This document shows, one piece after another, positions 14,914 through 49,974 of a stretch of DNA of 52,497 nt. Below the pieces are notes generated by a model, which saw nothing but the letters and a program-made list of their open reading frames with translations, had not been told where the DNA came from and searched no databases. Every line of letters starts with the position of its first letter. The stretch's first letter is position 1. The DNA is from Candidatus Poseidoniales archaeon (GTDB lineage Archaea > Thermoplasmatota > Poseidoniia > Poseidoniales > Poseidoniaceae), in contig JACETE010000002.1 of assembly GCA_013911465.1 (NCBI GenBank), positions 1-52,497 on the forward strand, written 5' to 3'. Position numbers and translations under genes: made by a program.

Positions 14914-17900
14914 ATGGAAAAGGTATCAAAGACCTCGCAACGCCCTGTTTTTGGATGGCTTATTGCCCCATTAGCAGTACTGATTGCAATACTAGCAAAC
15001 TATGTCGACGGCCTCATGTCGATCGACGTTGAACTGAACAGTGATGCGGTGACACCATTCATCGTCACCGGTGTGGCCGGCCTACTCGCCGTTACACCAC
15101 GCATCCTCCGTGAACTAGGAACCCTTCCAGAGTCTGTATCGCAAACACAAATCTCCCTCGCCATGTTTGTCCTCGCTCTTGTTGGGTCAGGAGTTGCTGA
15201 ATCTCAAATCTCTGGGTTTGTTGGATTCACCTTCTTCGTGGTTCTCTTCGGCGCATATCTTCTCGATACTCGTGAGCGCTACGAATGGATGACAATGCTC
15301 GTATTTGCGGGAGTTGGTGTCCATTCAGCATTCGATATTACGGCTGCTGCCGCTGCAGATTCGTACTTGCCAAGCATGTACGAATTCTCTGAGGGACAAT
15401 CCTATGACGTCTCAACGTTCCAGGAAACAGCACTTGGATTTGTTTTCTTTACATGGTTCACAGTGTTCCCGATTCTCGGTTTGTTGATCGGTGTCGTTGG
15501 TCGTGGTGTTCTCAACCCCGCAGGTGACAAAGGCTGGTTCTCCTTCAACACAGTTGAAAGCGGATGGAACCGTCAAGCACTTCCATTGCAAATTGCCTTG
15601 TTTGTTTGGGCAGCTGCCCATCTTGCCACAATCTGGCATTTTGATCAAGGCTCCATTGCAGACCGTCTTCGATTAGGTGGCCTAGGTGGTGTGGAAGCCA
15701 ATGGATTTGTTGGCTACTACACAGCACTCCTGACGGGAATCCTCGCCATCATCGTATCTGGAATGGTCGCAGAACGCTGGTTTACACGTGCCATGACCTT
15801 GAGTTCGTTGTGGACACTTTACCTCATTGGTACTTGGTACGAAGAAGGATTCTGGACCAACGAGACCTTTGCAGAGTCTTGGGCTCCGTTAATTTGGTTG
15901 GCAATCACGTTCTTCGTCGGTGTCGCAATCTCGATGATTGGAAATCACGAAAAGTACGGTGGCTGGTCAAACAGAGAAGAACACCGTCCGAGTGGCGCTC
16001 GCCAATTCTGGAATGCTCACTGGGCAAGTCTTCTCACAATGGTTGCCTTCTTAGTTGGTTTTGTCATCCGAATTCAATGGTATGCAGTTCCTTCCATGCA
16101 CGCTCTCGGAACCGATGGTTTCGATATGACTGGTGGTTCTGACCCTTGGTACATGAAGCGTGTCGTTGACTACATCCTTGCTCAGAATGCTCACCTTGTC
16201 ATGGACGCAGATCGATTCTATCCAATCGGTGGAGCAAACCCACGTCCTCCTTTGTTTTCCTGGTCGTTGGCTATTGGTGCTATGATTCTTCAACCATTCC
16301 TCGGTGATGATGCTGTATGGTGGAGCATGCTTGCTCTTCCTGCAATTTATGGTGCACTCACCATCTTGCCAGTTGCCGCTATTGCCAAAGATCACTTCGG
16401 AAAGGCTGCAGGTGTCATCGCTGCTTGGTTGATTGCATTCATGCCTGCTCACGTAACCCATTCAACATGGGGACTTGCTGACCACGATTCGTTCGTCATG
16501 CTGTTCATTGCGATTGGATTCATGTTCTATCTGCGAGCCGTTCGCTATGCTGGTTCAGAACGTTTGGTTCGAACCACATCGATTCGCCCGCTCCACATGA
16601 TTCGTGCAATGAGTGCTGTTGCGCAAGAGCGCAAGTATGCTATGTCAAATGCTGTTTTGGCAGGTGTAGCATTTGCTGCTGCAAGCCTTGGATGGAAGGG
16701 ATTCGTAGTCGGACCAGCAATTCTGTTCCTCGCCTATGCTGCACAAGTTGCTATCAACATGTTCCGTCGTCGAGACTCAACAATTCTGAGTACGCTCTTC
16801 TTGACCATGCTGATGACCAACTTCCTCATCGCACTACCATTCTACGCTCATCCGCAGTTGAACCTCATGCTTGATGGAACAGGTTTGCAACCGTTCCTAT
16901 TCATCCTCTTGTTCACCATTGTCATCATGTACATCACCACTGGTTTCCGTGACAAGCCATGGTTGCTCGTCCTTGGTACACTCGCAGTAGGTGCTGCCGT
17001 ATTCCTTGCTTCGCTGTATGTCTTGAAACTCACCAACCTAAGCAACGCTTGGGACGTATTGTTCACCGGTGGTGGCTACTTCACCAAGACGAAGATTTTC
17101 GGTACTGTTGCTGAAGCAAATGCTCCCGATCGTGGATACATGTTTGCAAGTTTCGGACCAATCGTGTTCGTGTTTGCATTGGTCGTAGGATTGACCTCGT
17201 TGTGGAGAGCCTTTAGCCAACGAAGTCAAATTTCGCTTGTCTTTGCAGTGTGGATTTTTACTGCCACATACATGTCTTGGACCGCAGCTCGTTTCCTCTT
17301 CAACGCAACACCAGTTGTCGCCGTTATGGGTGCTGCTGGAATTGTAGGATTCTGGAAGTGGGCGAATTGGGAAGGTCTCGTTCGCAACTGGCGTCGGGCT
17401 GGAATTCGTACTCCTTCGGAGCGAATTGCAGGTGCACGTCGTGCAGTATGGCGAATGCCATCCTTCTCTGCAGTTGTTCTCGTTCTGATCATGCTATCTG
17501 GGCAACAACTCACCTATGGGTTGGACTCAGCCATTCCAAGCAACTCTCCTGCTGAAGGTGACTTGGATGAATCGATTTACTACACGATACCAGACATCAT
17601 GCGCTGGGACGGACTCGGATTCTCTGTTCTCGACAGTCGTGACTACGAAGCCTTTGGAGGCCGTGCATACATGGGCTCATTCGGTAGTGGTTTCAATGGA
17701 CAGTCATGGAACGATGCCCATCAATGGTTATCACAACAAGACGTCTATCACGAAGGTGTAACAGACAAAGCATCCTGTGATGGGGAAGATGGAATTTGGG
17801 ATTCAGGTGAGAGCCTCTGTGAAATGAAATTCGGAGATAAGCCTGCTTTCGTCTCATGGTGGGACTACGGTTTCCAAGCCCTCAACACCGGTCAGCACCC

Positions 17901-20900
17901 TTCCGTATCCGATAACTTCCAGACAGGTATCCCTGCTTCAGGTAACATGTTGTTGGCACGAAGTCAAACAGACCTTGTTGCTATGTTCACACAACATCTC
18001 GCAGTTGGAGATATCACATACAACGTAGGTAAGACAGGCGAGAAAGAATTCACGCCAGCATTCGAATCCGCATTGGATGACCATCTTAACGAACAACAAA
18101 TGGATGAAATTAAATTGATTCTGCTCCAAGATGGAAAGGATCTCGATGAAATGGCAGATGTTGTTGTCGACCATTCCTTTGTTGCATTCAAGAACAAAGG
18201 CGACGCTTACATGACTCGCGGCTACCCGCTTGACTCAAACGGAATTCCTGACGAGTCTCTCGGACTTCACTACCGTGTTTGGGCTGATGGGGAATTGATT
18301 CCTTGTGAGAACCCAAGCGAAGAATTCTGTTTCAACGGGGACTATGTTACTGAAGAATCTGCGAACAGCACATTCAGAAACAATGCAGACGTTAGTTCTC
18401 AAGAAGTAACTGACGTCACGCACTACACCTTCGGAGACTATTGGTACACCTCCGACTTGGTTGAGGAATACCCATCCGTTTCTACGCACATCCATCGTTC
18501 CAATGCACACATTGCTTTGGTCGTACAGTTGTTGACCAATGGTCTAAGTGACGACACGGTCGTTGATCTCTACCATGATGTCATTGAACTCGAAGACAAT
18601 TATGTTGTTCAAGATTACAACGGAGCACCTGGTGCAACGATTGAACGTGACCACGAAATTCGTTACTTTGCTATTGATGACAAGCTCTACCCACGTGCTG
18701 GTCGTTACAATTCAGAGGCTGGTTACAACGGAGGTCGTCCGTTGGGAATCTTCGGTGCACCTACCATCCTTTCTGGACAGGATTTCAACACCTTCACCAA
18801 TGAGGTATACGAAACCAAGCGTGGAGATGAACCTGTTCGTGAGATGGACCGTGAAGCAGTTGACGATGCAATGTTGAAGGACATCTTGGACCAACAATCC
18901 GGAGCAGAAATTCAACCACTGACGGTTCAAGACATACGAATTGATCATCTCCCTGAATTCTTTGATACGATGCTTGCCCGTTCCTATGTGGGATACGGAG
19001 CATCAACACTCGGTGCAGATGCTGGTTCGACGAATCCGCAACCAAGACAGCAACTGGATGAAAGTGCTCGAGGAACGTCCTTCCTCCAGCAAGCTTACCC
19101 TCTACCGGGTGCAATGATGAATCACTTTGTTATTGCAAACTGGTATGATCCAGACACACCAGCAATTCTTGCCAACGACAATGTCAAGGTGATGAAGTAC
19201 TATTCTGGTGCTGAAATCTCAGGAACTGTCATGACTGAAGACGATGGTATGGGACTTCCAAACGCTCGAATTCTTATCGAGCGTGATGCATTCTCTGGAG
19301 AGGATTCAGAAGACCTTGACGAAGACACATACTGGATTCCAATCGGTGTAACTGATGCAGACGAGAATGGTGACTGGAGTTTCCTTGCGCCTGCTGGACG
19401 AATCCGAGTCTCTGCCTTTGCTGGTGTCTTTGATGATACCTTCGCAATTCAGGAGATCCAAAGTGGTGATTACGTCAGTGGATTCAGTGATGTGTTGACA
19501 GATGTCAACGATGATCGTGAAGTCTATGCAATCACCGCAGTCCTTGGCGAAGTTGCAAACATGACCTGGCTCGGAGAAACCACACTCAATGTTACAGGCG
19601 CTCAAGCAGATCGCCATGAAGACGTCACTACTGCAATGGACATCGAAGTCCAGAGTACTGGTGTTTCTGGTACAGTTGCTTGGAGTGGATTTGGTGACTT
19701 CGATGGAGAACCTCTCGTTGAGACCGACTTCATCCTCCGAAACATCTGGGCCATGACCGAGAACTACACGCTCACAACCACAAACGGATCCTTCGACACT
19801 GACGAAACTCGTGTCCTGCAAGGAACTGGAGAGGTTACCTTCTCCGATGTGGGTACCTTCACAAGCGAAGGCGTGGCATTGGCTTACGATTTCACTGGTA
19901 ACTTTACTCGAGAAATCTCCGATGCACGTGTCTTCTCAGGAAACGGCACATGGATTGGTATGGGTACCATTGAAGCTACTTGGGTTCAACACGACAACGC
20001 ATCACTTGATTGTGGTGAGAACAACACCATGCCAGATAATGCAACTCTATGTTTAATCTCAGAAGGCACGGATTTCTCCACCTATCTCTTGGATGGAGAA
20101 GTTACAGCCAACGGACGATTAACGTCTGATGGTGTAAGTACTCTGACGAAGGAACTCGATGGTGAGACCTTTGAAGGAACAGGTATCTTCGAAGGTGTAG
20201 GAACTCTCAACGGTACAGGTCTCTTCATTGGTCCGGGTACGTTCAGCGGTGACATTGTCAACCCCGGTTCGTTCTATCGAACTGGACTTGTCCCCGGTGT
20301 CTACAATATGATTGCATTGATGCCGAATGGAAGAGAAATCCTCCTGCCTGACCCTGTGCAGGTTGGAATCGAACCAACTTATGACCTGTCGATGACCGTA
20401 CCTGCATCACTCTTCGAGGACACACTTACCACCATGGCAGGCGATACAATCCCGAATCAAGAGATTGAATTGATCGATGTCGAACTCGGTGAGGATGAAA
20501 TGATTATTCTCACTTCGGACGAAGAAGGAAATGTTAGTTACGGTCCTATGACGGCTGGAATTTACTATCTCCGAGTTGACCTTGACAACGATGGTTACTA
20601 CGAACTGAACCAAACAATGCAGGTCTACGATGAACCAATGAACTTCACCTTTGACATCGGCGTACCTGAGATGTACGACCTCACCATTACGCTCAATGGT
20701 CCTGAAGGGTTTGACGTTACTGGACGTGAAGTCAACTTCACCGACCCACTTGGCTTGATGCCAATCGATGTCGTATCTGACGAAAACGGCGTTGTTGTCG
20801 TCGAACTTCCGATTGGAGAATGGTCAATCAGTGATAACAGCGATGAGGATTACATCCTGATCGAGGAAGTCATGGTTGAGGATTCGGACTTGACTTTGGA

Positions 20901-23900
20901 CTTCACCTATGCAACCTCTGTGTGGGTCAACGGTTCAATCGATGCTCCAAACACAGCTGGATTTACCTACCAAGAATGGCTTGCTCTTCCTGCCGAAGAG
21001 AAGTTGTACGAGAACGCAAGTTCAGTTCCTGTCCGATTCCATGGTAATGGACTCGAGTTCACGGCAGTAACGGACCAGTTTGGTGAATTCAGTCAACGTT
21101 TGCCAGCTGGAATGACATTCAACATGAATGCTCAGAGTTCAGTGTCAGCATTTGCGGCTGGAACTGTCGTTACAGTCTCGGAAGGAATGAGTACTCTTGA
21201 TGTCCTCATCCTTGGTCCAACTGTCGATGTTGTTGGAGCAGTCAAACTCTTTGACAACAATACGAACTGGAACCAAGATATCCCGAACTACGAACCTGTG
21301 GAGATCCATGCAACCAGTGAAGATGGCGTGGTATGGACTACTGCGACCGATGATGCAGGACTGTTTAACATGCAATTGCTCAACGGAACATGGACCTTTA
21401 GCATCCCTGATGCAGACTACAATGCTGATTCAGTAACGGATTACATCGTCAATGTTGAGGACGGAATGAACCCTGAACCTGTGGAGTTGATCACCAACCC
21501 AGCGAACAGCACTGTGACATTCAACGTGTTCACAGATTTGGGTGATGGTGTCTTCGAGAACGGAACTGCAATTCGACCAGATATCCAATTGATTCCTGTG
21601 TCTGAAGTTGGACAACAAGTGAACATCACTTCGGCTGACTATTCAGCAGATGGTATTGTAGACGTGATTCTCAGTCCGGGAATCTATGCAATCACGACCA
21701 ACAGTTTGGATGCATCTGATGAAAATGCTACGGATGCAAGCCTTGAGATCAACGCCATTCTCGACATTGTCCCAATTGGTTTGACAGGACCTGAAGAAGC
21801 GGTTCTTGTGCCAATTGTTGATGCATGGAGAATGAACGGTACCATTTCATGGGCTAACGGCTCAGCGATGGTCGAGAACTTCCTTCTCTCAACACCTGAT
21901 GGTTCGAATTACGTGCCAATCAGTGTTGATGAAAACGGATCGTTTGCAACCTACGTTCAGAGTGGTGATTACATTGTTGTCGTCGCTCCGATTCTCAACG
22001 GTGATGGAATGATGGAATCACTCCGAATGCCGATCACAATCGATGCAGACTCGTCAGTTCGAACCGACCTTTCCCTTGCTCTTGTTGAAACCATCGAGGT
22101 TTCCCTAACACTGAAGGAGAGCGGAACAGATTCCGAACTTGTCGGTAAGAGGGTCGTTCTTGTCAGCCATGATGGTTACGGAAACGTCACAATGAACCCG
22201 TCTGATGCTGATGGAAACGCTACACAATTGCTCATGCCAGGTACCTGGAGTTTGTACATGAATGAATCCGCAGCACAGCGCTTCTGGACCATTGATACCT
22301 CCGATGCGCCTGTCCTAATGGACACCAATACCTCATTGGGTGTTGTTTATGCAGCACTTGAAGTCGAGATCGGCGGAAAGGCGTACTGGGATACCGATGA
22401 GGATGATATTGCTGATGCAAATGAAGGCGTCGAGGGTGCAAATGTTACGATCCAAGGAGGTAGCATTGATACTGTCGTTGCAACCGATTCCTCTGGTGTA
22501 TGGCGACTGTATGTTCCAATTCTTGAGAACTACACAGTCACTGTCTCGAAGGATGGATTTGGGGTTGTTTCCTATGACGATAACAACACAGGAACTTACG
22601 TTGTTCAGAACGAACCTCTCTCACAAGACATTGAAATGTCTGCTGCAGAAGTAACGGTTACTGGAACAGTAACTGACGTTCTCGATTCATCTCGACTCGA
22701 TGGTGCATCCATCACCTTGTACGGTACATCTGAAAACCAACAAGACTCGATTGATGTCATTGGTACACTCGCTGATGAAACCTTGTCGTTCACAGCAGTT
22801 GTGGAGCCGGGTCAATGGGTCGTAGTTGTTTACGAAGATGACGCACCATTCAACGGTGGTGGCGTAGCTGTTGGACTCCTCGATGCAGAAGTCCAAGACG
22901 GTGGTACCATTGAACTCGTCATGAGTAAGGGTGGATGGGTTGATCTCTCAACAGAGTTCACTTCGTTCAACCTACAAACCTTCAATGCAGGAACCGATGA
23001 AGTTGATTCACCAGTTACTGATGTTGTTGATGTTGAAGTCGATCTTGGAGACGGACGTGCTTGGACACTACCAATTGATTCCGATGGAACCTTGGAAGTT
23101 CTCCTCCCTGCGAACTCTGCAACCTTCAACTCTGAATTCTCCACTGTACAACGTGACCTTGTCATGAATTACACTGCTGGAATTTCGATTGATAATGGAG
23201 ACGAAGGACGTACAGCAGTCATGCTTTCGTTCAACCGTAAGACAAACAGTGATCTCACATTGACTGTCTCAGGTGTTGAGGGAGCTACTGTTCTCGGTGA
23301 TGAAAACCGTGACCTGCTTGCTGTGGTTAATTCATCGGACTCAGACAACTATACATCCATTGAATTTGATGTTGCAGCTCAGTACCAAGGTACAGAAATT
23401 GCAGATCCGTTTGATGTCAGTGGAACCGTCACAGTATCCCCTGACCAGGACCAATGGGCAGTAGAGTTCTACAACGGTACAGACTGGGTTGAGAGCACCA
23501 GCGTACAACTTGGAATCGGAGACGTTGCAGCAAACGCAACCCTCAACGAAAGTGTACGTGCTCGAATTGTCCTACCAACTGTTGAAGCCGCTTGGTGGCT
23601 CGAAAACGGTCATGACATCAATATCCGCTTCTCTGCGGACAGCGGAGACATGACTGAGGTTTCTCTCAATGTTGAGATTCCTCAATACTATGCGTTCAAC
23701 ACAACAGATGTAACGTCGACAATTGGTGTCGCACCCGGTGGTGCTACAACAGCATCTCTAACCATTAACAACAACGGTAACGGTGACGACTCGTTCACGT
23801 ACGAGGTTCTTGACAATCTCCCTGATGGATGGATCATTAGTCCTATGAACGGTGTTACAACCATCGCAAAGGATAACTTGCGTGACCTCGCATTTGCAGT

Positions 23901-24459
23901 CACATCCTCTTCAGACTTTGATGATGGCCAAGTGACAATAACAGTTCGAATTACAAGCGAAGATGGAATCACTCAAGAAGACGTTGAAATCGTCGTCGAA
24001 TCGGCTCGAATCTCATTGAATTGGAATCAAGGTCTTTCGCAGTCACGTAGTAACAACTTCGCTGATGTGGATCCAAACTCGGTCATTATTGTCATCGAGA
24101 ACAACGGATTGCGACCTGCTCAACAAGTTACAGTCTATCTTGACAGCAGTGGTATGAGTGAAATGAACATGACACTCGCCGTACCTGCATCCGGTAGTAC
24201 AGACTTCGAGTTCGTTCTACCTAAGGCAAGTCAAGGTATCACTCGATACGATGTTCGTGCAGTTGTTCTTGGTGACGATGCAAACTACACTACGGGTGAC
24301 GCTGTTGATGATGACTTCGGAATTGAATACCTTGTACAAGGTTCTGAAGAAACGTCAAACTCAATTGTCAATGTGGTCATTATCGCACTGATCTTTATCA
24401 TCCTCTACTTTGGAGTCAAGGCGTCTTCCCGAGCTCGTGGCTCAGGTAGCCGATTCTGA
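14914..24459 (+). CDS. aglB: Giant (3181 aa) AglB/STT3-type oligosaccharyltransferase fusion: extra polytopic N-domain + AglB core + roughly 2100-aa beta-sandwich-rich extracellular extension + C-terminal TM anchor
   Basis: WWDYG is encoded at 17857..17871 (aa 982-986). An EL1-like motif DPWYMKRVVDY...DADRFYPIGGANPRPPLFSW starts at 16141 (about aa 410), and GLADHDSF is also present. There are many hydrophobic helices before aa 980. Downstream are CarboxypepD_reg-like signatures (GTVMTEDDGMGLPNARILIE; SSGVWRLYVPILENYTVTVSKDGF) and CARDB-like stretches. A terminal TM (IVNVVIIALIFIILYFGV, 24361..24420) is followed by a basic tail. It is a single uninterrupted ORF in the track. Confidence 0.85.
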   Translation: MEKVSKTSQRPVFGWLIAPLAVLIAILANYVDGLMSIDVELNSDAVTPFIVTGVAGLLAVTPRILRELGTLPESVSQTQISLAMFVLALVGSGVAESQISGFVGFTFFVVLFGAYLLDTRERYEWMTMLVFAGVGVHSAFDITAAAAADSYLPSMYEFSEGQSYDVSTFQETALGFVFFTWFTVFPILGLLIGVVGRGVLNPAGDKGWFSFNTVESGWNRQALPLQIALFVWAAAHLATIWHFDQGSIADRLRLGGLGGVEANGFVGYYTALLTGILAIIVSGMVAERWFTRAMTLSSLWTLYLIGTWYEEGFWTNETFAESWAPLIWLAITFFVGVAISMIGNHEKYGGWSNREEHRPSGARQFWNAHWASLLTMVAFLVGFVIRIQWYAVPSMHALGTDGFDMTGGSDPWYMKRVVDYILAQNAHLVMDADRFYPIGGANPRPPLFSWSLAIGAMILQPFLGDDAVWWSMLALPAIYGALTILPVAAIAKDHFGKAAGVIAAWLIAFMPAHVTHSTWGLADHDSFVMLFIAIGFMFYLRAVRYAGSERLVRTTSIRPLHMIRAMSAVAQERKYAMSNAVLAGVAFAAASLGWKGFVVGPAILFLAYAAQVAINMFRRRDSTILSTLFLTMLMTNFLIALPFYAHPQLNLMLDGTGLQPFLFILLFTIVIMYITTGFRDKPWLLVLGTLAVGAAVFLASLYVLKLTNLSNAWDVLFTGGGYFTKTKIFGTVAEANAPDRGYMFASFGPIVFVFALVVGLTSLWRAFSQRSQISLVFAVWIFTATYMSWTAARFLFNATPVVAVMGAAGIVGFWKWANWEGLVRNWRRAGIRTPSERIAGARRAVWRMPSFSAVVLVLIMLSGQQLTYGLDSAIPSNSPAEGDLDESIYYTIPDIMRWDGLGFSVLDSRDYEAFGGRAYMGSFGSGFNGQSWNDAHQWLSQQDVYHEGVTDKASCDGEDGIWDSGESLCEMKFGDKPAFVSWWDYGFQALNTGQHPSVSDNFQTGIPASGNMLLARSQTDLVAMFTQHLAVGDITYNVGKTGEKEFTPAFESALDDHLNEQQMDEIKLILLQDGKDLDEMADVVVDHSFVAFKNKGDAYMTRGYPLDSNGIPDESLGLHYRVWADGELIPCENPSEEFCFNGDYVTEESANSTFRNNADVSSQEVTDVTHYTFGDYWYTSDLVEEYPSVSTHIHRSNAHIALVVQLLTNGLSDDTVVDLYHDVIELEDNYVVQDYNGAPGATIERDHEIRYFAIDDKLYPRAGRYNSEAGYNGGRPLGIFGAPTILSGQDFNTFTNEVYETKRGDEPVREMDREAVDDAMLKDILDQQSGAEIQPLTVQDIRIDHLPEFFDTMLARSYVGYGASTLGADAGSTNPQPRQQLDESARGTSFLQQAYPLPGAMMNHFVIANWYDPDTPAILANDNVKVMKYYSGAEISGTVMTEDDGMGLPNARILIERDAFSGEDSEDLDEDTYWIPIGVTDADENGDWSFLAPAGRIRVSAFAGVFDDTFAIQEIQSGDYVSGFSDVLTDVNDDREVYAITAVLGEVANMTWLGETTLNVTGAQADRHEDVTTAMDIEVQSTGVSGTVAWSGFGDFDGEPLVETDFILRNIWAMTENYTLTTTNGSFDTDETRVLQGTGEVTFSDVGTFTSEGVALAYDFTGNFTREISDARVFSGNGTWIGMGTIEATWVQHDNASLDCGENNTMPDNATLCLISEGTDFSTYLLDGEVTANGRLTSDGVSTLTKELDGETFEGTGIFEGVGTLNGTGLFIGPGTFSGDIVNPGSFYRTGLVPGVYNMIALMPNGREILLPDPVQVGIEPTYDLSMTVPASLFEDTLTTMAGDTIPNQEIELIDVELGEDEMIILTSDEEGNVSYGPMTAGIYYLRVDLDNDGYYELNQTMQVYDEPMNFTFDIGVPEMYDLTITLNGPEGFDVTGREVNFTDPLGLMPIDVVSDENGVVVVELPIGEWSISDNSDEDYILIEEVMVEDSDLTLDFTYATSVWVNGSIDAPNTAGFTYQEWLALPAEEKLYENASSVPVRFHGNGLEFTAVTDQFGEFSQRLPAGMTFNMNAQSSVSAFAAGTVVTVSEGMSTLDVLILGPTVDVVGAVKLFDNNTNWNQDIPNYEPVEIHATSEDGVVWTTATDDAGLFNMQLLNGTWTFSIPDADYNADSVTDYIVNVEDGMNPEPVELITNPANSTVTFNVFTDLGDGVFENGTAIRPDIQLIPVSEVGQQVNITSADYSADGIVDVILSPGIYAITTNSLDASDENATDASLEINAILDIVPIGLTGPEEAVLVPIVDAWRMNGTISWANGSAMVENFLLSTPDGSNYVPISVDENGSFATYVQSGDYIVVVAPILNGDGMMESLRMPITIDADSSVRTDLSLALVETIEVSLTLKESGTDSELVGKRVVLVSHDGYGNVTMNPSDADGNATQLLMPGTWSLYMNESAAQRFWTIDTSDAPVLMDTNTSLGVVYAALEVEIGGKAYWDTDEDDIADANEGVEGANVTIQGGSIDTVVATDSSGVWRLYVPILENYTVTVSKDGFGVVSYDDNNTGTYVVQNEPLSQDIEMSAAEVTVTGTVTDVLDSSRLDGASITLYGTSENQQDSIDVIGTLADETLSFTAVVEPGQWVVVVYEDDAPFNGGGVAVGLLDAEVQDGGTIELVMSKGGWVDLSTEFTSFNLQTFNAGTDEVDSPVTDVVDVEVDLGDGRAWTLPIDSDGTLEVLLPANSATFNSEFSTVQRDLVMNYTAGISIDNGDEGRTAVMLSFNRKTNSDLTLTVSGVEGATVLGDENRDLLAVVNSSDSDNYTSIEFDVAAQYQGTEIADPFDVSGTVTVSPDQDQWAVEFYNGTDWVESTSVQLGIGDVAANATLNESVRARIVLPTVEAAWWLENGHDINIRFSADSGDMTEVSLNVEIPQYYAFNTTDVTSTIGVAPGGATTASLTINNNGNGDDSFTYEVLDNLPDGWIISPMNGVTTIAKDNLRDLAFAVTSSSDFDDGQVTITVRITSEDGITQEDVEIVVESARISLNWNQGLSQSRSNNFADVDPNSVIIVIENNGLRPAQQVTVYLDSSGMSEMNMTLAVPASGSTDFEFVLPKASQGITRYDVRAVVLGDDANYTTGDAVDDDFGIEYLVQGSEETSNSIVNVVIIALIFIILYFGVKASSRARGSGSRF

Positions 24460-30235: not shown

Positions 30236-32749
30236 ATGATAGCCAAACCTGGCGTTCAGGAGAAGGTGCTGTTGCATCTTTTGGATTATGCCGATTTCAA
30301 GGAGAAGGTCGAGGTTCCGTTTGCACTATCGCAAATGGGCATTGCAAATGCTGTCGCAATTGCTCGCTCGAATGTACCTCGGGCCATTTCGGGACTTCGA
30401 GATCAAGGTCTCCTCGTTGAACGGCAAGCTCACGTTCAGGGAGTTAGCCGGAAGCGAAAGGCGTACTTCTTGACTGATTCAGGCATTATTGCTGCTGAAG
30501 AAACATGGAATCGTCTTCGAGAATTTCAATTTCGTTGCATCAACGTTGAAGGTGAAACCGTATCGACTTCACTTGGAGGTGCACATGAGGTTTTGCCATT
30601 CACAATGCGCCCTGTCGATATCATCCGATATTTGGATGACAATCTCATTCTTGATGCTCGTTCATTGTCTGAAGATTTGATTGAACGTGATTTGTCAAAA
30701 CAAGTTGAGAAGCAATTGGTTACTTCCTTGGGTGATCTTCCTCGTTTGCGCCATTTCTTTGGCAGAGAAAAAGAACTTGACAACATGGTCAACCTCCTCG
30801 ATGCAAGAGCAACGACATTGATGATTCCTGGTATTGCTGGAATTGGGAAGACAACCATAGCAGCAAAACTGATTGAACGATTCATGCACAGGAGAAATCT
30901 TCTGTACCATCGCTGTCAAGATTGGGAGGGCTCACGTGCATTGTTTGAGTCCTTAGCAGAGTGGTTGCTTAACATTGGAGATTCATCGTTTGCCGATTAT
31001 TTGGCAGCGACTCCCGTTCCAAAACCCGATGATGCTGCCCGAATTCTCATCGATTCGCTCGAAAACACACCCACTCTCATCGTCATCGATGATTTCCACA
31101 AAGTTTCGGATGCTATTCTCTTCCAAACGATTCAATCGATGACAATCGGTCTTCTTGGTAGTGAGGAATCAATTGGATTAGTGATTTTCTCTCGTTCGTT
31201 CAAGCCTGTTGTTCCAACCAAAGATGCAGAAGGTCGAATTACCAGTCTTGTTCTTCCACTCGATGGTCTAGATTCTGATGCTGCACGGAACATTCTCACA
31301 GGCTTTGAAGATCTTTCAACCGAACAATGGTTGCATATTCACGGTTTGTCACGTGGTCACCCTCTCGTCTTGGAACTGATCAATCGGGGTGCATCAGCTG
31401 GGGCTTTCCATGATACGCTGGAACATTATGTTACAAAGGAAATCTTTTCGAAACTGTCAGCAGAACAAAAACGTGTTCTTACAGTACTATCAGTCTTTAG
31501 AGAGTCTGTTTCGTTGGATGCTCTGCTTGCACATGAACTCGATATCGACGTTTTGGACAGTCTAGTTGAGCAAGGACTTGCTCGACAAGTCGATGTCGAT
31601 GTGTATGACGTTCACGATTTGATTCGTGAGTTCCTTGTACGCAGTATTGATGAACAGACCAAACAAACAGTACACAGCAATTGTGCAATGTACTACAGTA
31701 AACTCAGCAAATCATCGGAAACCACTCTTGAACAAATCTATCACGAGCTTGCTTCTGAACATGAACAAGAAGCGATTGAGAAGATTGTCGAGTTCGGTCG
31801 ACAACTCGTCTCACAGGGACATCTTGAATTGCTCAGCCTGATTGAGAGTGTTAATATTGAACGTTTAGAACCTGATTTGATGGCTCCAATGATGCAACTT
31901 CAAGGTGACATTCTGTTAATGCTCGGTCGATTTGAACAGGCATCGTCAATTTTTGAAACAGCAAGTGAAGCTGCCAAGGAAGCAAAACTTCCTGTAATCT
32001 ATTCAGAAATCCTTGGTTCACAAGCAGACATTGCAATGAAGCAAGGCCAAACCGATACCGCACTTCGTGCACACAAAGAGGCGCTTGAGGTACAAGTAGA
32101 ACTTGGTGACGCAAAGGGTGCTGCTCGAACCTACAACAACATGGGTTATTTGTACCGAAGGAAAAACGATCGCAACAAGGCCCTGGAAGCGTATTCTGAA
32201 GTCGAGGCAATCATCAGCAATGACGAATCCTTGTTGAGTGCTCAAATCATTCTTGGTCGTGCTCTTCTGGATTTAGGTGAGGTGGAGAGGGCTCGAAAAC
32301 ACGCGTTTGAAGCCTTTGAACGCACGGATAAAGCGGAAGATCTTCTAGCCCACGCTCGGGCTCAAGCATTGCTTGGTCGATATCACGCAAAGATGAATGA
32401 CGCTGAGACTTCGATGCACCACTACACTGAATCGCTAAACATCATGTCCGATGCAGGTGATCCAGTTTCAATGGTGGAATTGATGATTCTTCTTGGTGAA
32501 GTCCTTGAGGACAGTGGTCGAAGTGAAGAAGCGCTCGAGCGATACCGAGAAGCGTTGATCATCGCAGAAGCAAATGACTTGCGTATGCAAATCGGAGAGT
32601 TGCTCTCTAAACTGGGAGGAGTTGCACCAGACCGTCAACGTAGAATGGAGTACCTTCAGCGTGCACTCGCAGTATTCAGAGAATTGGGTGCACGTACACG
32701 CATGCGTGAAGTTCAATCACAAGTTCACTCAGCAATTATGGGACGCTAG
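30236..32749 (+). CDS. wHTH - STAND/AAA NTPase - TPR protein (signal-transducing ATPase, probable regulator)
   Basis: 837 aa. The N-terminal MarR/TrmB-like winged helix is LSQMGIANAVAIARSNVPRAISGLRDQGLLVERQ. Walker A GIAGIGKTT is at 30830..30856. Walker B LIVIDDFH is at 31076..31099. The C-terminal third carries TPR-like repeats (AARTYNNMGYLYRRKNDRNKALEAYSE; ALERYREALIIAE). The gene starts 13 nt after the stop of the preceding surface-protein gene. Confidence 0.85.
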   Translation: MIAKPGVQEKVLLHLLDYADFKEKVEVPFALSQMGIANAVAIARSNVPRAISGLRDQGLLVERQAHVQGVSRKRKAYFLTDSGIIAAEETWNRLREFQFRCINVEGETVSTSLGGAHEVLPFTMRPVDIIRYLDDNLILDARSLSEDLIERDLSKQVEKQLVTSLGDLPRLRHFFGREKELDNMVNLLDARATTLMIPGIAGIGKTTIAAKLIERFMHRRNLLYHRCQDWEGSRALFESLAEWLLNIGDSSFADYLAATPVPKPDDAARILIDSLENTPTLIVIDDFHKVSDAILFQTIQSMTIGLLGSEESIGLVIFSRSFKPVVPTKDAEGRITSLVLPLDGLDSDAARNILTGFEDLSTEQWLHIHGLSRGHPLVLELINRGASAGAFHDTLEHYVTKEIFSKLSAEQKRVLTVLSVFRESVSLDALLAHELDIDVLDSLVEQGLARQVDVDVYDVHDLIREFLVRSIDEQTKQTVHSNCAMYYSKLSKSSETTLEQIYHELASEHEQEAIEKIVEFGRQLVSQGHLELLSLIESVNIERLEPDLMAPMMQLQGDILLMLGRFEQASSIFETASEAAKEAKLPVIYSEILGSQADIAMKQGQTDTALRAHKEALEVQVELGDAKGAARTYNNMGYLYRRKNDRNKALEAYSEVEAIISNDESLLSAQIILGRALLDLGEVERARKHAFEAFERTDKAEDLLAHARAQALLGRYHAKMNDAETSMHHYTESLNIMSDAGDPVSMVELMILLGEVLEDSGRSEEALERYREALIIAEANDLRMQIGELLSKLGGVAPDRQRRMEYLQRALAVFRELGARTRMREVQSQVHSAIMGR

Positions 32750-33216
32750 AACATCGGACGGTCGAGTTCGATCGTGATGTTCCCATTGTGATAGACAACC
32801 CAAATGGATTCAACTCCAGCGAGTTCGATCACACCAGAATGTGGAACTGAAGCAGTACCTGAGAGCGATCGTTCGGTGTCCAAATCACCTTGAGCATCGT
32901 ACAGAATCAATTCAGTATCGGTCAATTCGAGCGTAAATTGGGATTCATCCGCCTCTGTAGCCCTCCAATACACACGTTCTGCATAGGATGAATCATCAAT
33001 TCGACTGGCAATATCGGTACGCTCAATCGCGGCAGATAAGTCATTCATGTTGGCTTCAATTGCTTCTTCATTCCAACGCTCTCTTGTTGCTGTTTCGATG
33101 TCGTAAATCCAAAGACTGAACATTGTCAACAACAAGACTCCCAATAGAAACGTGAAGACATAACCGAGTTCAGTCGCAGCACCTTCCCTGTTTCTTTGAA
33201 GCGTTGTTATGTTCAT
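32746..33216 (-). CDS. Small archaeal type IV pilin-like protein (class-III signal-peptide-like N-terminus)
   Basis: 156 aa. The N-terminus is MNITTLQRNREGAATELGYVFTFLLGVLLLTMFSLWIY, a charged head followed by about 20 hydrophobic residues. Its ATG overlaps the upstream stop (ATGA, plus-strand tcat at 33213..33216). Confidence 0.7.
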   Translation of the reverse strand: MNITTLQRNREGAATELGYVFTFLLGVLLLTMFSLWIYDIETATRERWNEEAIEANMNDLSAAIERTDIASRIDDSSYAERVYWRATEADESQFTLELTDTELILYDAQGDLDTERSLSGTASVPHSGVIELAGVESIWVVYHNGNITIELDRPMF

Positions 33217-35402
33217 GCAATCACCTCGGAAACATGTGCGTCAAGTGTAGATATTTGTAATGAAAATTGAATGGGTTGGCCTGCAGTATGCCAGACCGAT
33301 TCAACAGTTCCAAACCCTGGGTCTGGTACCCATCCAACATAGTCGTTGAGCAAATCCAATCGGCCTGGATAGATCGTCCAATCTTCACTTCCTTCCAATC
33401 CGTCAGTAGATGATTGAGCAATTGCCTTTCCATAGGGTTCTGCCCAGCCACGACGCACCTCATATGCTACATCACTTGCGAGAGAGGTTCGTTTGGTCAA
33501 GGTCACTTCCATTGACAGGACTCCTCCTCCCACGGCGGAATCACTCGTTGGATGAAGTGCAGGGATGGTCGCTGCAAATCGGGGGCCTGGGCCACCACGG
33601 TCAGCAGGCGGGGCTAGAACCGTCGGATTGAATTCAGGATGGTTCGTTACGACTGCTCCACCGCTCATAGCCACCTCCATTCCAGTAACTGAGGATTCAA
33701 ATCCGTAAACAAATCGTGAGATTTGCATCACCCAAGCACTCCCAATGGGTGTGTAGGGCTCTTCTACAATAAGGCCATAGAGTTCAACGTGCAAACTTGC
33801 AGGATATGTTCCTGAGCGCCAAGCTTCTTGCAAATCGATAATACTGCGACCTCCCATGCTCGACCATGGCATCGATACATCAACCCAGCCCGATGCTGTG
33901 ATATCAATTGAAACACAACGACGTGCGCCGTCATGAAGACTTTCTTGCAATCCTATGGTTCCAGATTCAACCAGTGCATAGATTCCATGTCCTTTGATCG
34001 TATCGACATCAAGCGCTTCTCCATTAACTGGGATGCGTAGTGATTCTCCTCGGTTGAGGACAGTCTCATTCTCTGCAAGTGTTGAAATGTTGAGTGTTGA
34101 TTGCTCTCCATTCGATCGAAGTTCCAGATTGTAGATGTTGGAGTGGTTCGAATTGAACATCAATCCAGATTCCATTCCAGTGTCCGCTGCTCCAAGTTCG
34201 AACACTCCAATGGGCGAAGAAGAACTTGTCCAAGTGACAGAAATAGGTAGGTCGCTCTGAAGATTGCTTGCTCCATCGAGTTCGAGCGGAGGCCAAGCAA
34301 CACTGTAACTGCTTTTCTCATCGATGGTAACGCCAGAACCTCTCCAAGTAACGGTGGCGGATTCATCGTTTGGATTGCTCAATAAGACATAACCATCCTG
34401 TGTTGGAGGAATAAACGATGTACCGTGAATTGAGCCTGTAAGACTCTTCCATGTGGCCGATCCTAGAGTGTCACCGATTGAGAGCATAAGTTGAGCATTG
34501 GTAGTTGTTGTAATATGAACAACTTGAGCAGTGTTGAGTTCAAGTGTCTTGTTCCATTTTGTCTTCACATTCAGGAGTTCAGACGGTAAGGCAACTTCTG
34601 TAAAATCTCCAAACAATCCGTTGCCGTGAACCATGAGAAGTTCTTCCGCTACGATGTTGATGTGGGAGGTTCCTGCTGGTAATGGCAACGCCCATGATCT
34701 GCCTAATCCATCTGCATTTGCATCGGTAGGTCGTGCCTCAGTGGTTCCTTCTCCTCCACGAAGCCAATGGACGACGAGTTCTTGGGAAGATTCCAAAGAC
34801 CAATCAGCATTATCAAACGACCATTGCTGAACATCATCAACAAATAATTCAGCAGTCTCTTGGACCTCCTCATTCCGTAAAACATCAACATCGATGGGTC
34901 CGAGAGGGAAACTCAAGCCCGGTTTTGTCGTGAAGATTACACTTTCAGCCCAAGTCGGAGCAGTGTAGTGGTACGGGCGATCAGGACCTAGACGTAGATC
35001 GGAGAAGCATGCTGTTGAGGTGGTCGATTCAGGGTGACGGATTTTGAGCATGTCATCAAAGTCCAGTGCATCTCGAATTCGGAAGGAATGATCTTCCTCC
35101 CACGTTGTCGAATACCACATGCCACTGCGCATAACGTCCCATGAAAGAGCACCGTCCACAGGAACGAACTCTTGAGTGACCACATCACCTGGCATTCCTT
35201 GCTCGGAGAGAGTCGCTGTTTGTTGGTTAAATTGTGTCATCTGGGCTGCCATATCGTGTCGTTCAACACTTCCTTCGAGTTCCTCGATCACAGGAATCAT
35301 AGTAACCATCATCAAACTGATGATGGAAATCACGCCACCAAACAGCAATACTGTGGCGATTGCTGCTGATACAGCTTCATCATCTCGGTGGAGTTCCATC
35401 AT
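33213..35402 (-). CDS. Large (729 aa) protein with an archaeal type IV pilin N-terminal domain (DUF1628-like)
   Basis: The N-terminus MMELHRDDEAVSAAIATVLLFGGVISIISLMMVTMIPVI fits the archaeal pilin pattern (charged)-AVS-x-hydrophobic. Its start overlaps the upstream stop in an ATGA (35399..35402). Confidence 0.75.
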   Translation of the reverse strand: MMELHRDDEAVSAAIATVLLFGGVISIISLMMVTMIPVIEELEGSVERHDMAAQMTQFNQQTATLSEQGMPGDVVTQEFVPVDGALSWDVMRSGMWYSTTWEEDHSFRIRDALDFDDMLKIRHPESTTSTACFSDLRLGPDRPYHYTAPTWAESVIFTTKPGLSFPLGPIDVDVLRNEEVQETAELFVDDVQQWSFDNADWSLESSQELVVHWLRGGEGTTEARPTDANADGLGRSWALPLPAGTSHINIVAEELLMVHGNGLFGDFTEVALPSELLNVKTKWNKTLELNTAQVVHITTTTNAQLMLSIGDTLGSATWKSLTGSIHGTSFIPPTQDGYVLLSNPNDESATVTWRGSGVTIDEKSSYSVAWPPLELDGASNLQSDLPISVTWTSSSSPIGVFELGAADTGMESGLMFNSNHSNIYNLELRSNGEQSTLNISTLAENETVLNRGESLRIPVNGEALDVDTIKGHGIYALVESGTIGLQESLHDGARRCVSIDITASGWVDVSMPWSSMGGRSIIDLQEAWRSGTYPASLHVELYGLIVEEPYTPIGSAWVMQISRFVYGFESSVTGMEVAMSGGAVVTNHPEFNPTVLAPPADRGGPGPRFAATIPALHPTSDSAVGGGVLSMEVTLTKRTSLASDVAYEVRRGWAEPYGKAIAQSSTDGLEGSEDWTIYPGRLDLLNDYVGWVPDPGFGTVESVWHTAGQPIQFSLQISTLDAHVSEVIA

Positions 35403-36439
35403 CCGTTCACCACCAATCGACGAACATCAATCTCGAGGAAGAGAGCATTTCCTTGGGTTTCCACGGTCAATCCATCGCTCCCACTTGCTCGTTGATAGGG
35501 TGTAATACCGATGTATTCACCGAGTGTTCCTGCTGCACGATTGATGGTATAATCGTTCAACCAGATGTCATGATATTGGGGGTCAATGACGGAATGAAGC
35601 GTGTTCTTGACTTTGATTTGCAAATTATATGATTCTCCAGTAAACAGCTGGATTGGCCCTTGTGATTCGACTTTGAACCCTACGTTCTGTCCATTACCAA
35701 GGGCACCGTTCAACTGTACGTCGGTAAGAACCAGTGAAAGCCTCGTTGAACCATCAACAAGTGTATCGAGGCGCATGCGAGGTGCTTCTTCGATGGTCCA
35801 AGATGAGCGAGGGTCTTTCGAAATGCGAGCATCATTGATGAGTGCGATTTCATTCATACCTCCATCAATGGCAGTGCTGATGCTCAATCCCGAGAGGACG
35901 AATCGTGACCACCGGTGAACATGTTCACCGCCTGCGTCGTAAAAGTCGATGATAAGGAACGTTTCACTGTCAAGATTATGATCGACGGTGGTCCAATCAA
36001 AACCCGAATTAACGGCAAATTCGGATGTAGTGGTTGGATTATGAACTGCAATATCAGTGACGGACTCGTTCAATGCAAGGAATTCGAATGAAGAGGCGTT
36101 TAATTCAACGACACTTACAACTTCATGGGGGGTTAAATCCGATGCTATCACCCACTCTTCAACAAGATTTGCCGCATTGATTGACGATGAACGAAGCGAA
36201 AGAGCCTGTCGTGTCCCTGTTCCTTCTGGCGAATCACCAACAACATCGATTCGATCTTCAACACGATCTGCTATGTTGCTTGCACTGTTCCAATTGGTAT
36301 TGTCATGGAAGGCATCGATGTATGGATTGAGAAAGACCCAGACCCCTCCCATAATGGTGATGACCATTGCAAGCATCATGATGACGCCGAGGATTTCACT
36401 GACGGCATCATCATCTTTTGCAGTAATCTGGCGACGCAT
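35399..36439 (-). CDS. 346-aa protein with an archaeal type IV pilin N-terminal domain (DUF1628-like)
   Basis: The N-terminus is MRRQITAKDDDAVSEILGVIMMLAMVITIMGGVWVFL. An SD-like GGGGG (36446..36450, minus strand) lies 6 nt upstream of the ATG. Confidence 0.75.
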   Translation of the reverse strand: MRRQITAKDDDAVSEILGVIMMLAMVITIMGGVWVFLNPYIDAFHDNTNWNSASNIADRVEDRIDVVGDSPEGTGTRQALSLRSSSINAANLVEEWVIASDLTPHEVVSVVELNASSFEFLALNESVTDIAVHNPTTTSEFAVNSGFDWTTVDHNLDSETFLIIDFYDAGGEHVHRWSRFVLSGLSISTAIDGGMNEIALINDARISKDPRSSWTIEEAPRMRLDTLVDGSTRLSLVLTDVQLNGALGNGQNVGFKVESQGPIQLFTGESYNLQIKVKNTLHSVIDPQYHDIWLNDYTINRAAGTLGEYIGITPYQRASGSDGLTVETQGNALFLEIDVRRLVVNG

Positions 36440-36504
36440 CTCAATCCCCCTTGTTCTTCGTAGGTCTTCCGTTGCATTTAGGCATTGACCTCAAGGTCGT
36501 TGTT

Positions 36505-37335
36505 TCACGGCAATTCTCGTTGAATCCTCTGAATTGCATTTGTAGCGAATCCATCTCCATCACGTCTGCCGATAAAGTGGGAAAATTGAGGTCCATCTTG
36601 CATGGAAATATTGATGTCGCCTTCAAACACTTCCTCAATTTCGAACAGCACCGTTGATTCTGCCAGGTGAGGTGCATTGTTCATCTCAGAAAGGTGTGTC
36701 AGTGTGATTGTACGTGTTGCATCCGTGCAAACCTGATTGAGGAATTCTCCTGTCTGTGCATTTGACAAGTGCCCTCCTCTTCCTGAGATTCGGTCTTTGA
36801 GCGATGAGGGATATGGGCCCGACATCAGGCGGTTACGATCATAATTCGCCTCAACAGCGATGTGTTGGCAACCACGTACATGATGGACAAGTTCATCGGT
36901 CCAACTCCCCAGGTCTGTGATGATTGCCGAGCGCTCACCGCCATGACTTGCTACAAACGCTACATTGTCTGCACCAGAATGTGGCACAGGGACGGGAAGG
37001 AGTGATATTCCTTGGTCGAATTGTAGAACATCAAGTGCTTCAAAGTGATGTGTTAATTCTGCACGAAGCCCGAGTTCAGCCGCTGTTCGATGATTTGCAA
37101 AGACTGGTATTCCCCACCGCTTTTGTGCTATCAAAGCGCCTCCACCATGGTCTCCATGGTGATGCGTAATGACAATCGCATCCAAATCGGAAGGAGAGAC
37201 ATCAAGCATGTTGAGTCGTTTTTCGAGTTGAACACCACTGAACCCTTGATCGACGAGGATATGAGCCGAACCTGAGCTGAGAAGTGTGGCGTTGCCACGA
37301 CTACCCGTCCCGAGGTGCGTAATTGACATACCCAT
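36505..37335 (-). CDS. Metallo-beta-lactamase-fold hydrolase (PhnP/YycJ-like, COG1235 type)
   Basis: 276 aa. The motif VITHHHGDHGGG (HxHxDH) is present, with downstream His/Asp ligands (PVPHSG, TDLG, LTHLS). There is no signal peptide. It lies 65 nt upstream of, and co-oriented with, the pilin-like genes. Confidence 0.85.
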   Translation of the reverse strand: MGMSITHLGTGSRGNATLLSSGSAHILVDQGFSGVQLEKRLNMLDVSPSDLDAIVITHHHGDHGGGALIAQKRWGIPVFANHRTAAELGLRAELTHHFEALDVLQFDQGISLLPVPVPHSGADNVAFVASHGGERSAIITDLGSWTDELVHHVRGCQHIAVEANYDRNRLMSGPYPSSLKDRISGRGGHLSNAQTGEFLNQVCTDATRTITLTHLSEMNNAPHLAESTVLFEIEEVFEGDINISMQDGPQFSHFIGRRDGDGFATNAIQRIQRELP

Positions 37336-49185: not shown

Positions 49186-49974
49186 ATGAAGAGCAACAAG
49201 CTACTGGGGTTGTTTCTTTCTTGCTTGATGATTTCTATCCCTATGTCTGGATGTACTTCGGAATTGAAAGAAATACTCGGTGAATCGTGGGGAGTCCCCG
49301 GAGGACTTGCCCTCGCTTGCTTGCGTGATGATGCCTACAGGGAACTTGTCATTGAAATTGACCATGCTCCGGGCTACAATCCAGAATCATCGACGGTTAG
49401 CCTACTGAAAGAACGACTTGGGCAAGTATGTGACAAGCCAGATGGGATTCGAATCGAGTTGAATGAAGTCAACTTTGCAGAAACCTCTTCATGGACTGCA
49501 ACAAAAGTTCGTGAGATTGGTCACGAAACCATGGATGCACCTCCACAATCATCGGAACTTCGTTGGCATGTGATCATGCCCCAGGGCAAGTACTCAGATG
49601 ACAGTGTTCTCGGCGTTGCAGTCGATGCCTCTACAATCGCACTGTTCTCGGATTCCATCGATGATGCAACCTCCATCTTCAATCCGAGAATTTCCTCAGA
49701 GGATATCGAAAACAGCGTCATGGTTCACGAGTTTGGCCATCTCTTGGGATTGGTCAACCTCGTTTATACGTCACCTGCAGACCATGAAGATTCGGAACAC
49801 CCTGGACATTCAAACAACGAAGATTCTGTGATGTATTGGGCAGTGGAAACCGTATCCATCAGCGCATGGTTTGCAGGCGATTTGCCAACAGCCTTTGACC
49901 AAGACGACCTTAATGATATGGAAGGGATGAAGACTGGGGAAATTGCGACGAAGGATCAATTGTGGCGTCCCTAA
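49186..49974 (+). CDS. Putative lipoprotein zinc metallopeptidase (HExxH)
   Basis: 262 aa. The signal plus lipobox-like sequence is LLGLFLSCLMISIPMSGC. The zinc motif is VMVHEFGHLLGLVN, followed by a His/Asp/Glu-rich stretch ADHEDSEHPGHS and VMYW. Confidence 0.7.
   Translation: MKSNKLLGLFLSCLMISIPMSGCTSELKEILGESWGVPGGLALACLRDDAYRELVIEIDHAPGYNPESSTVSLLKERLGQVCDKPDGIRIELNEVNFAETSSWTATKVREIGHETMDAPPQSSELRWHVIMPQGKYSDDSVLGVAVDASTIALFSDSIDDATSIFNPRISSEDIENSVMVHEFGHLLGLVNLVYTSPADHEDSEHPGHSNNEDSVMYWAVETVSISAWFAGDLPTAFDQDDLNDMEGMKTGEIATKDQLWRP

Follow-up and report, generated by a model that had tools for sequence, protein, structure and literature searches.

A translationally coupled set of type IV pilin-like genes in a conserved surface-protein island of the Poseidoniales

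A 52,497 bp stretch of the genome of a Candidatus Poseidoniales archaeon (contig JACETE010000002.1 of assembly GCA_013911465.1, positions 1 to 52,497; hereafter the window) carries three consecutive minus-strand genes, whose products are named here p346, p729 and p156 after their length in amino acids (aa) and are referred to together as the trio. Their closest relatives are labelled Candidatus Poseidoniaceae, that is, marine group IIa (MGIIa). According to the definition of the class III signal peptide, we file the three proteins as type IV pilin-like, without assigning them to a Pfam family, because they have a common leader register, weak family-wide matches to pilin models, AlphaFold2 (AF2) models with a long helix followed by beta domains, and a pilin-like pattern of conservation. 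On balance, we favour the interpretation that the trio is a Poseidoniales-specific pilin-like set, made from one coupled transcript with its own promoter-like element, which would act as a minor-pilin or tip module served by machinery encoded in trans.

N-terminal leaders and pilin-like features of the three proteins

When the N-termini of the three families were extracted from about 150 Poseidoniales loci, one register was found to be common to all of them: a variable charged leader ending in R-[D/N]-x-x-[A/G], followed by V-S-E-[I/V]-L-G-V in p346, V-S-A-A-[I/V]-A-T-V in p729 and A-A-T-E-[L/I]-G-Y in p156. The leaders of the window proteins are 10-12 aa long and end in R-D-x-x-[A/G], after which come V-S-E, V-S-A-A and A-A-T-E, respectively. 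That of p346 is MRRQITAKDDDA, which a prepilin peptidase is predicted to cut off between A12 and V13, leaving a mature N-terminus that begins with VSEILGV; that of p729 is MMELHRDDEA, the predicted cut lying between A10 and V11 and the mature N-terminus beginning with VSAAIATV; and that of p156 is MNITTLQRNREG, followed by AATELGYvFTFLLGV, which is invariant across the family. The three N-termini of pilin kind quoted in a preliminary description of this DNA were confirmed, and each protein was seen to have a single hydrophobic segment, placed at its N-terminus. Hydrophobic windows begin solely at residues 9-24, about 20 uncharged hydrophobic residues come after each predicted cleavage-site motif, and the three proteins are acidic (pI 4.2-4.5).

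The features on which FlaFind relies were looked for in the trio. Found were a small residue at position -1 (A12 in p346, A10 in p729 and G12 in p156, with A or G conserved in this column in about 119-148 sequences per family), a charged residue at -2 (D in p346 and E in p729; p156 has E in the window, but its relatives vary here), and, as the sole membrane segment, about 20 uncharged hydrophobic residues behind a short charged leader; a long N-terminal helix with a beta-rich head was seen in the AF2 models of p346 and p729. FlaFind-like scans (strict and relaxed for class III signals) were written in-house and applied to all the open reading frames (ORFs) of the window. They singled out the trio as the sole credible candidates, in agreement with the class III signals proposed earlier; p156 was picked up solely by the relaxed scan.

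The acidic residue at -2 had been regarded in the preliminary description as unusual. The residue is indeed present, but archaea need a charged residue of either sign at this position (PMC4371748), and it is not unusual for archaeal pilins, because PilA1 and PilA3 of Haloferax volcanii are processed at DA/VS (the slash marks the cleavage site), while PilA4-6 have RA/VS (PMC4371748). At this position p729 has E in the window and E or D family-wide; p346 has D in the clade of the window and Arg in most relatives, so that Asp at -2 is specific to that clade. Similarly, the sizes of p346 and p729 were as described, but they are not surprising, large pilins being normal in archaea (PMC4858521, PMC4371748, PMC12448462).

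Mean pairwise column identity in the three proteins was 0.83/0.60/0.87 in the helix, 0.52/0.38/0.64 in the ectodomain and 0.32-0.44 in the leader. A variable leader, a highly conserved helix and a more variable head make up a profile that looks pilin-like.

Profile searches gave matches which were weak and consistent. The p346 protein matched PF07790 Pilin_N (DUF1628) with 20.7 bits (E=8e-4), under the gathering threshold of 25.2 bits, and PF23960 DUF7289 with 18.6 bits (E=1.5e-3), under the threshold of 27 bits, which was not reached either by the N-terminus of p729 (18.7 bits, E=1.3e-3). No Pilin_N match was obtained with p729 or p156 of the window, nor any match of the latter to PF23928 DUF7266. 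Among the relatives, Pilin_N was matched by 45 of 49 p346 proteins (best E=1e-4) and DUF7289 by 46 of 49 p346 (best 2.4e-6) and 11 of 16 p729 proteins (best 5.8e-7), and DUF7266 was weakly matched by 7 of 37 p156 proteins (best 4.7e-3). The DUF7289 matches of p346 and p729 span only the N-terminal 60-80 residues, and we treat the Pilin_N match as a superfamily-level similarity, not as Pfam membership. The hidden Markov model comparison suggested in the preliminary description thus went in favour of the pilin assignment as regards the consistency across relatives, and against it as regards the thresholds, which the window proteins do not reach. When the families were aligned with each other by hhalign, the N-terminus of p729 matched the p346 family with E=2.9e-5 and in the same register; p156 was aligned in this register with p729 (E=1.4e-3) and p346 (E=0.036), more weakly than those two with each other. 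Literature searches found no papers on DUF7289 or DUF7261-7266, and a tblastn search of p346 against PLSDB plasmids, aimed at annotated haloarchaeal DUF7289 loci, gave chance matches only.

The AF2 model of p346 (pLDDT 74, pTM 0.68) has a helix at residues 7-68 followed by immunoglobulin (Ig)/FN3-like beta domains, and its matches in a Foldseek search of the PDB were generic Ig/FN3-like ones only, with E>0.01. The model of p729 (pLDDT 85, pTM 0.84) has a helix at residues 8-68 and a large, multi-domain, all-beta ectodomain, which matched only jelly-roll, lectin and carbohydrate-binding module (CBM)-like structures with low TM scores (TM<=0.13). For p156 the sequence suggests a helix and a small beta domain. 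The only two cysteines of p729 (132 and 496) were invariant in 16/16 aligned family members, suggesting a conserved inter-domain disulfide in a putatively extracellular protein. Three further motifs of p729, TNHPE, RRGW and DY-GW, lie close to its C-terminus and hardly vary. Together, the weak family-wide matches to Pilin_N, DUF7289 and DUF7266 and the AlphaFold models support a type IV pilin-like identity.

It could be argued that these are ordinary type II signal-anchor membrane proteins which resemble pilins by chance, as all the pilin-model scores of the window proteins were under curated thresholds and no significant match to a solved pilin was found. However, three adjacent genes share the register R-D-x-x-[A/G] followed by (V/A)(S/A) throughout the order while their leaders vary, the weak matches are to three independent archaeal pilin-type models and hold over dozens of relatives, and conservation of leader, helix and head is distributed as in pilins; we consider a chance likeness improbable. 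It is also very unlikely that the trio are archaellum accessory proteins, such as ArlF/ArlG-like stator or anchor components. Some relatives bear the JGI automatic names 'flagellin-like' and 'FlaG/FlaF family', a weak N-terminal match to TIGR02537 was seen, and the size of p156 would be suitable; but the JGI labels derive solely from the shared N-terminal signal, no Arch_flagellin or FlaG-type Pfam match was obtained, and no locus has the trio in or near an arl/fla operon, none being present in the window or the flanks. The fla operons of marine group II (MGII) have been described as separate syntenic regions with their own FlaG (PMC6336850).

Gene junctions, upstream spacer and the metallo-beta-lactamase neighbour

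The four minus-strand genes given in the preliminary description, namely the trio and a gene for a metallo-beta-lactamase (MBL)-fold protein, were recovered in the ORF listing, and both ATGA overlaps were read in the sequence (Table 1). The p346/p729 junction is GGATGATGG; an alternative start of p729 one codon later would be equally coupled, and many p729 relatives are annotated at 728 aa. In all the 53 loci with both genes, 26-38 nt separate the stop of p346 from the +1 codon of p729, and the corresponding distance at the p729/p156 junction is also conserved (32-50 nt). At both junctions, the genes overlap or abut in all the lineages. A minor-pilin complex would be expected to come from several different pilin-like genes, side by side and translated together, and the trio, with its ATGA overlaps and conserved junctions, has this arrangement.

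The start of p346 lies 65 nt from the stop of the MBL gene, which is on the same strand and has the HxHxDH motif, as had been described. From the MBL stop to the +1 codon of p346, the distance varied from 101 to 239 nt across loci. A 16-nt element with the consensus GGTSAAKNSCTAAATG was found in this spacer: there was exactly one exact match in each of 72 MGIIa loci, always between MBL and p346, and a single one in the window. It was absent from the loci of marine group IIb (MGIIb) type. In the clade of the window, the ATG led by a Shine-Dalgarno sequence follows about 45 nt downstream of the element; in another clade, an in-frame GTG follows after about 26 nt. It resembles a pair of B recognition element (BRE) and TATA box and is a candidate promoter or regulator site. 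The variable spacer, together with the conserved promoter-like element, argues for a promoter of the trio separate from that of MBL; a scan for bacterial-type promoters and terminators gave no information on this archaeal DNA.

In the databases, many relatives of p346 begin at an ATG further upstream, within the conserved element, and are thereby 13-36 residues longer (359-382 aa). Since this upstream ATG is out of frame in the window (36437-36490), the downstream ATG, which is preceded by a Shine-Dalgarno sequence and gives the 12-residue leader, is likely to be the true start family-wide. The MBL-p346 spacer of the MGIIb-type loci (L089-L102, L140, L158 and L160) is longer (120-240 nt) and AT-rich. 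A conserved hairpin, ATCGCC-TAC-GGCGAT or GCCGCGGC-TAT-GCCGCGGC, precedes a Shine-Dalgarno sequence, GGGAGGT, in it, and may act as a terminator or as a regulatory structure in the RNA.

Table 1. Position of the trio, of its neighbours and of the sequence elements in the window
Feature	Position	Strand	Basis
p346, pilin-like, 346 aa	35399..36439	-	ORF
p729, large pilin-like, 729 aa	33213..35402	-	ORF
p156, small pilin-like, 156 aa	32746..33216	-	ORF
Neighbouring cytoplasmic MBL-fold hydrolase, 276 aa, HxHxDH	36505..37335	-	Lactamase_B_2/Lactamase_B matches
HTH-AAA_16-TPR STAND regulator, 837 aa, candidate regulator only	30236..32749	+	Pfam scan
ATGA stop/start overlap p346/p729	35399..35402	-	Read from sequence
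ATGA stop/start overlap p729/p156	33213..33216	-	Read from sequence
Conserved intergenic element GGTCAATGCCTAAATG, candidate BRE/TATA promoter or regulator site for the trio	36475..36490	-	72 MGIIa loci
Shine-Dalgarno-like GGGGGA (GGGGAGGT in relatives), 6 nt upstream of the p346 ATG	36445..36450	-	Sequence context

The preliminary description had also suggested, with the MBL-fold nuclease domain of bacterial ComEC as background, that the MBL protein may be functionally linked to the trio. A ComEC-type protein would have the MBL domain fused to a competence membrane domain and an OB fold, whereas the protein of the window is small (276 aa) and soluble and has no hydrophobic segment. Its motif is H58-x-H60-x-D62-H63, and it matched Lactamase_B_2 (E=3.8e-15) and Lactamase_B (E=2.1e-13) in Pfam. 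Single-sequence and profile searches against Pfam, NCBIfam and PDB, the comparison that was to reveal a ComEC-like identity, returned generic MBL cores only, with no ComEC or competence domain and no OB fold, and the PDB profile matches were limited to the generic core at about residues 15-100. The MBL gene is not translationally coupled to p346. Adjacency of the MBL gene to the trio was kept in all loci, the synteny check named in the preliminary description; however, this synteny does not discriminate, since all the genes within +/-10 kb keep their order in all the 150+ loci, and it is indistinguishable from the collinearity of the whole block.

A DNA-uptake pseudopilus, in which the MBL neighbour acts like the nuclease domain of ComEC, has therefore only the conserved same-strand adjacency in its favour. 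Against it are the generic core of a soluble protein without ComEC, OB or membrane features, the lack of coupling, the variable spacer (roughly 30-130 nt or more) with a promoter-like element in MGIIa and hairpins and AT-rich sequence in MGIIb, and the equally conserved position of all the genes in the +/-10 kb flanks. The likeness to ComEC and type IV competence consists solely of a pilin-like set beside an MBL-fold gene; here the MBL gene appears to be separately promoted and there are no com-like genes nearby. We regard this reading as hardly credible, and the MBL protein, as far as its sequence goes, as a neighbouring generic cytoplasmic hydrolase that does not belong to the pilin module.

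A defence system made up of MBL and the STAND regulator (Avs1-like) was considered as well. PADLOC gave only weak matches to the N-terminal MBL and to TPR, and this candidate was rejected, the MBL and STAND genes being core genes in fixed positions and on opposite strands.

Distribution of the trio and the surface-protein island

Hundreds of metagenomic homologues were found for each of the three proteins. The p729 family is small and lineage-restricted (110 matches, of which about 14 are full-length clusters at 50% identity, among 1.84 billion representatives); it has relatives in 286 GTDB species genomes and extends to the Thalassarchaeaceae (MGIIb). The trio is kept in both families of the Poseidoniales, with conserved translational coupling, and the co-conservation which had been set as a check on the preliminary description was so established. 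Wherever the contig extended far enough for the comparison, gene order was identical in all the 80 genome and 77 metagenome loci, down to 28% identity of p729.

The conserved order begins with genes for a giant protein of 1798 aa and a giant TSP3 protein of 1916 aa, continues with MBL, p346, p729 and p156, and ends with the STAND regulator, a beta-helix giant of 1466 aa, an S8 subtilase and a giant of 3181 aa. This collinear block, of at least 34 kb (about 14.9-48.7 kb of the window), was found in every Poseidoniales locus fetched (L002-L161), of both MGIIa and MGIIb type. The p346 and p729 proteins evolve faster than their neighbours, showing 42-50% identity where MBL and STAND show 60-73%. 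The trio sits in a deeply conserved cell-surface biogenesis island, since its collinear neighbours include an AglB fusion, an S8 protease and giant TSP3 and beta-helix proteins.

The STAND gene is convergent with p156, the two gene ends overlapping by 4 nt, and its position was kept in all the loci compared. The 3181-aa ORF (14914-24459, plus strand) has an STT3/AglB oligosaccharyltransferase domain at about residues 381-1019, fused to a very long C-terminal part in which a CarboxypepD_reg domain is found. On the same strand it is followed by the S8 subtilase, the 1466-aa beta-helix/Big_7 protein and STAND, with gaps of 56, 102 and 14 nt. Downstream of the giant surface-protein genes, a 262-aa ORF (49186-49974, plus strand) gave weak matches of zinc-metalloprotease type (Peptidase_M10/M6, HExxH region). 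A CDP-archaeol synthase was also found in the Pfam scan of the window. Three contigs with this archaeal locus (L008, L032 and L062) are filed in MAGs named Salipiger bermudensis, Rhodobiaceae bacterium and Verrucomicrobiales bacterium, and are probably mis-binned Poseidoniaceae.

Assembly machinery and possible roles of the trio

No match to T2SSE/FlaI, T2SSF/TadC or Peptidase_A24 was found by Pfam in any of the window ORFs scanned, in accordance with the preliminary description, and neither the window nor any of the +/-10 kb flanks has a gene for a prepilin peptidase, an ATPase or a platform protein. The FlaFind-like scans detected no candidate of the size of a major pilin in the window. The lack of nearby machinery, which had been presented as noteworthy, is thus real, but it is not odd, because archaeal pilin genes are often far off (PMC4858521, PMC12448462). 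Archaeal ATPase/TadC modules work with pilin sets encoded in trans, according to Makarova et al., who also placed a minor pilin family of 250-550 aa (arCOG02911) in 'clade 2' pilin sets (PMC4858521). Genomes of MGIIa have been reported to contain flaB/H/I/J and an additional flaI/tadC (PMC6461757, PMC6336850, PMC6864105).

The same phylum offers a precedent in the CdiP pilus of Cuniculiplasma divulgatum (Thermoplasmatales), in which the pilin genes CdiPB (major) and CdiPA (putative minor) are about 500 kb from the ATPase/platform operon, and whose pilins are glycosylated and cleaved in FlaFind-type fashion after an 11-residue leader (PMC12448462). As proposed for the trio, these pilin genes are away from their machinery; unlike the trio, CdiPB is a major pilin, of 135 aa, and no homology between CdiP and the trio was detected. 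Closer similarities were seen with the haloarchaeal and euryarchaeal pilin sets (PilA1-6 of H. volcanii and the Pilin_N, DUF7289 and DUF7266 proteins), which have, like the trio, a class III signal with (D/R)A/VS sites, a conserved hydrophobic N-terminal helix with all-beta Ig-like ectodomains, and different pilin genes in a row, often away from pilB/pilC. In contrast to those sets, the Poseidoniales families are lineage-specific and below the Pfam thresholds, they include a 729-aa multi-domain member, they have no linked ATPase/TadC in any relative, and their composition (346/729/156 aa) is fixed across the order.

Consecutive, coupled pilin-like genes of unequal size, with one large subunit bearing extra domains, are also known from the bacterial minor-pilin and pseudopilin tip complexes, such as GspI-J-K of type II secretion and, in type IVa pili, FimU-PilVWX with PilY1; comparable too are 'modular' pilins, onto which adhesin domains are grafted. 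The presumed role of such complexes is the priming or capping of the fibre, and adhesion. No sequence or fold relationship is known to join them to the trio, and the archaeal signal follows different rules, with no G/F(M)TLxE motif.

The role that we find most plausible for the trio is that of minor pilins or a tip adhesin, or of a bindosome-like surface complex. One transcript with coupled translation would yield the three proteins in fixed stoichiometry, and a PibD/FlaK-type prepilin peptidase encoded elsewhere would cut them after the A or G. The N-terminal helices would then hold the mature subunits together as a priming or tip module of minor-pilin kind, in which p729 may be the exposed multi-domain adhesin head, lectin- or CBM-like, and p346 and p156 its adaptors. 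A type IV filament machine encoded in trans would insert the module, which may contribute to the attachment to particles or cells.

Several points weigh against a minor-pilin or tip module. The window proteins reached the gathering threshold of no Pfam or NCBIfam pilin model, profile searches of the three families against PDB sequences gave no significant solved pilin (the best was Natrinema PilA2, with E=0.55), and no pilin was returned by Foldseek with the p346 and p729 models against the PDB. The -2 position of p156 is not conserved as a charged residue (S, N, G, T, R and others in relatives, E in the window), which makes p156 the weakest and least certain pilin candidate. No locus in any lineage has the trio beside an ATPase or TadC, so no machinery can be assigned to it. 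About half of the MGIIb genera have been reported without a fla operon (PMC6461757, PMC6336850), and, since the trio is present in MGIIb-type lineages, it may not need a filament machine. Finally, the heterotrimer, the cleavage and the surface exposure of the trio are predictions.

Some of these observations give weight to a filament-independent envelope complex, an alternative to which we assign a real but clearly smaller chance than to the tip module. The trio would stay anchored in the membrane by its N-terminal helices, cleaved or not, as a housekeeping part of the envelope and not of a pilus, and would form a short pseudopilus- or bindosome-like stalk organising or anchoring the giant glycoproteins of the island. 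In every locus of both families, its collinear neighbours include the AglB, beta-helix and TSP3 giants, the S8 protease and STAND; no small major-pilin gene is in the window, the fla operon is reportedly missing from about half of the MGIIb genera, and p156 is possibly uncleavable. However, trio-bearing MGIIb genomes may yet have type IV machinery, the N-terminal helices, with E at +3/+4, are strongly conserved and look like those of assembly-competent pilins, and the order-wide collinearity is possibly just general synteny. A more specific form of this alternative, to which we give somewhat less credence still, is that the trio is an ATPase-independent, order-wide envelope scaffold, present also in archaellum-less MGIIb, which serves as a membrane-rooted stalk to anchor or organise the giant N-glycosylated TSP3 and beta-helix proteins of the block. 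If true, it would be a pilin-based stand-in for a conventional S-layer anchor.

Of the overall interpretation put forward in the preliminary description, the pilin-like identity and the coupled, co-conserved operon were upheld, and the ComEC-like uptake nuclease was not. The trio was previously unannotated and reveals no new kind of system, and the reading as a DNA-uptake system falls away. Three order-wide "hypothetical proteins" are now assigned to the type IV pilin-like class and placed in a conserved surface island with an oligosaccharyltransferase, a protease, giant adhesin-like proteins and a STAND regulator. There is debate on how MGII attach to particles and phytoplankton, for which only a "flagellar" operon, thrombospondin-like proteins and flotillin have been invoked until now. 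The trio, with its 729-aa putative adhesin subunit, provides concrete candidates for structural, proteomic and metatranscriptomic studies of this attachment, and a lead into surface building and attachment in the uncultured marine group II archaea.

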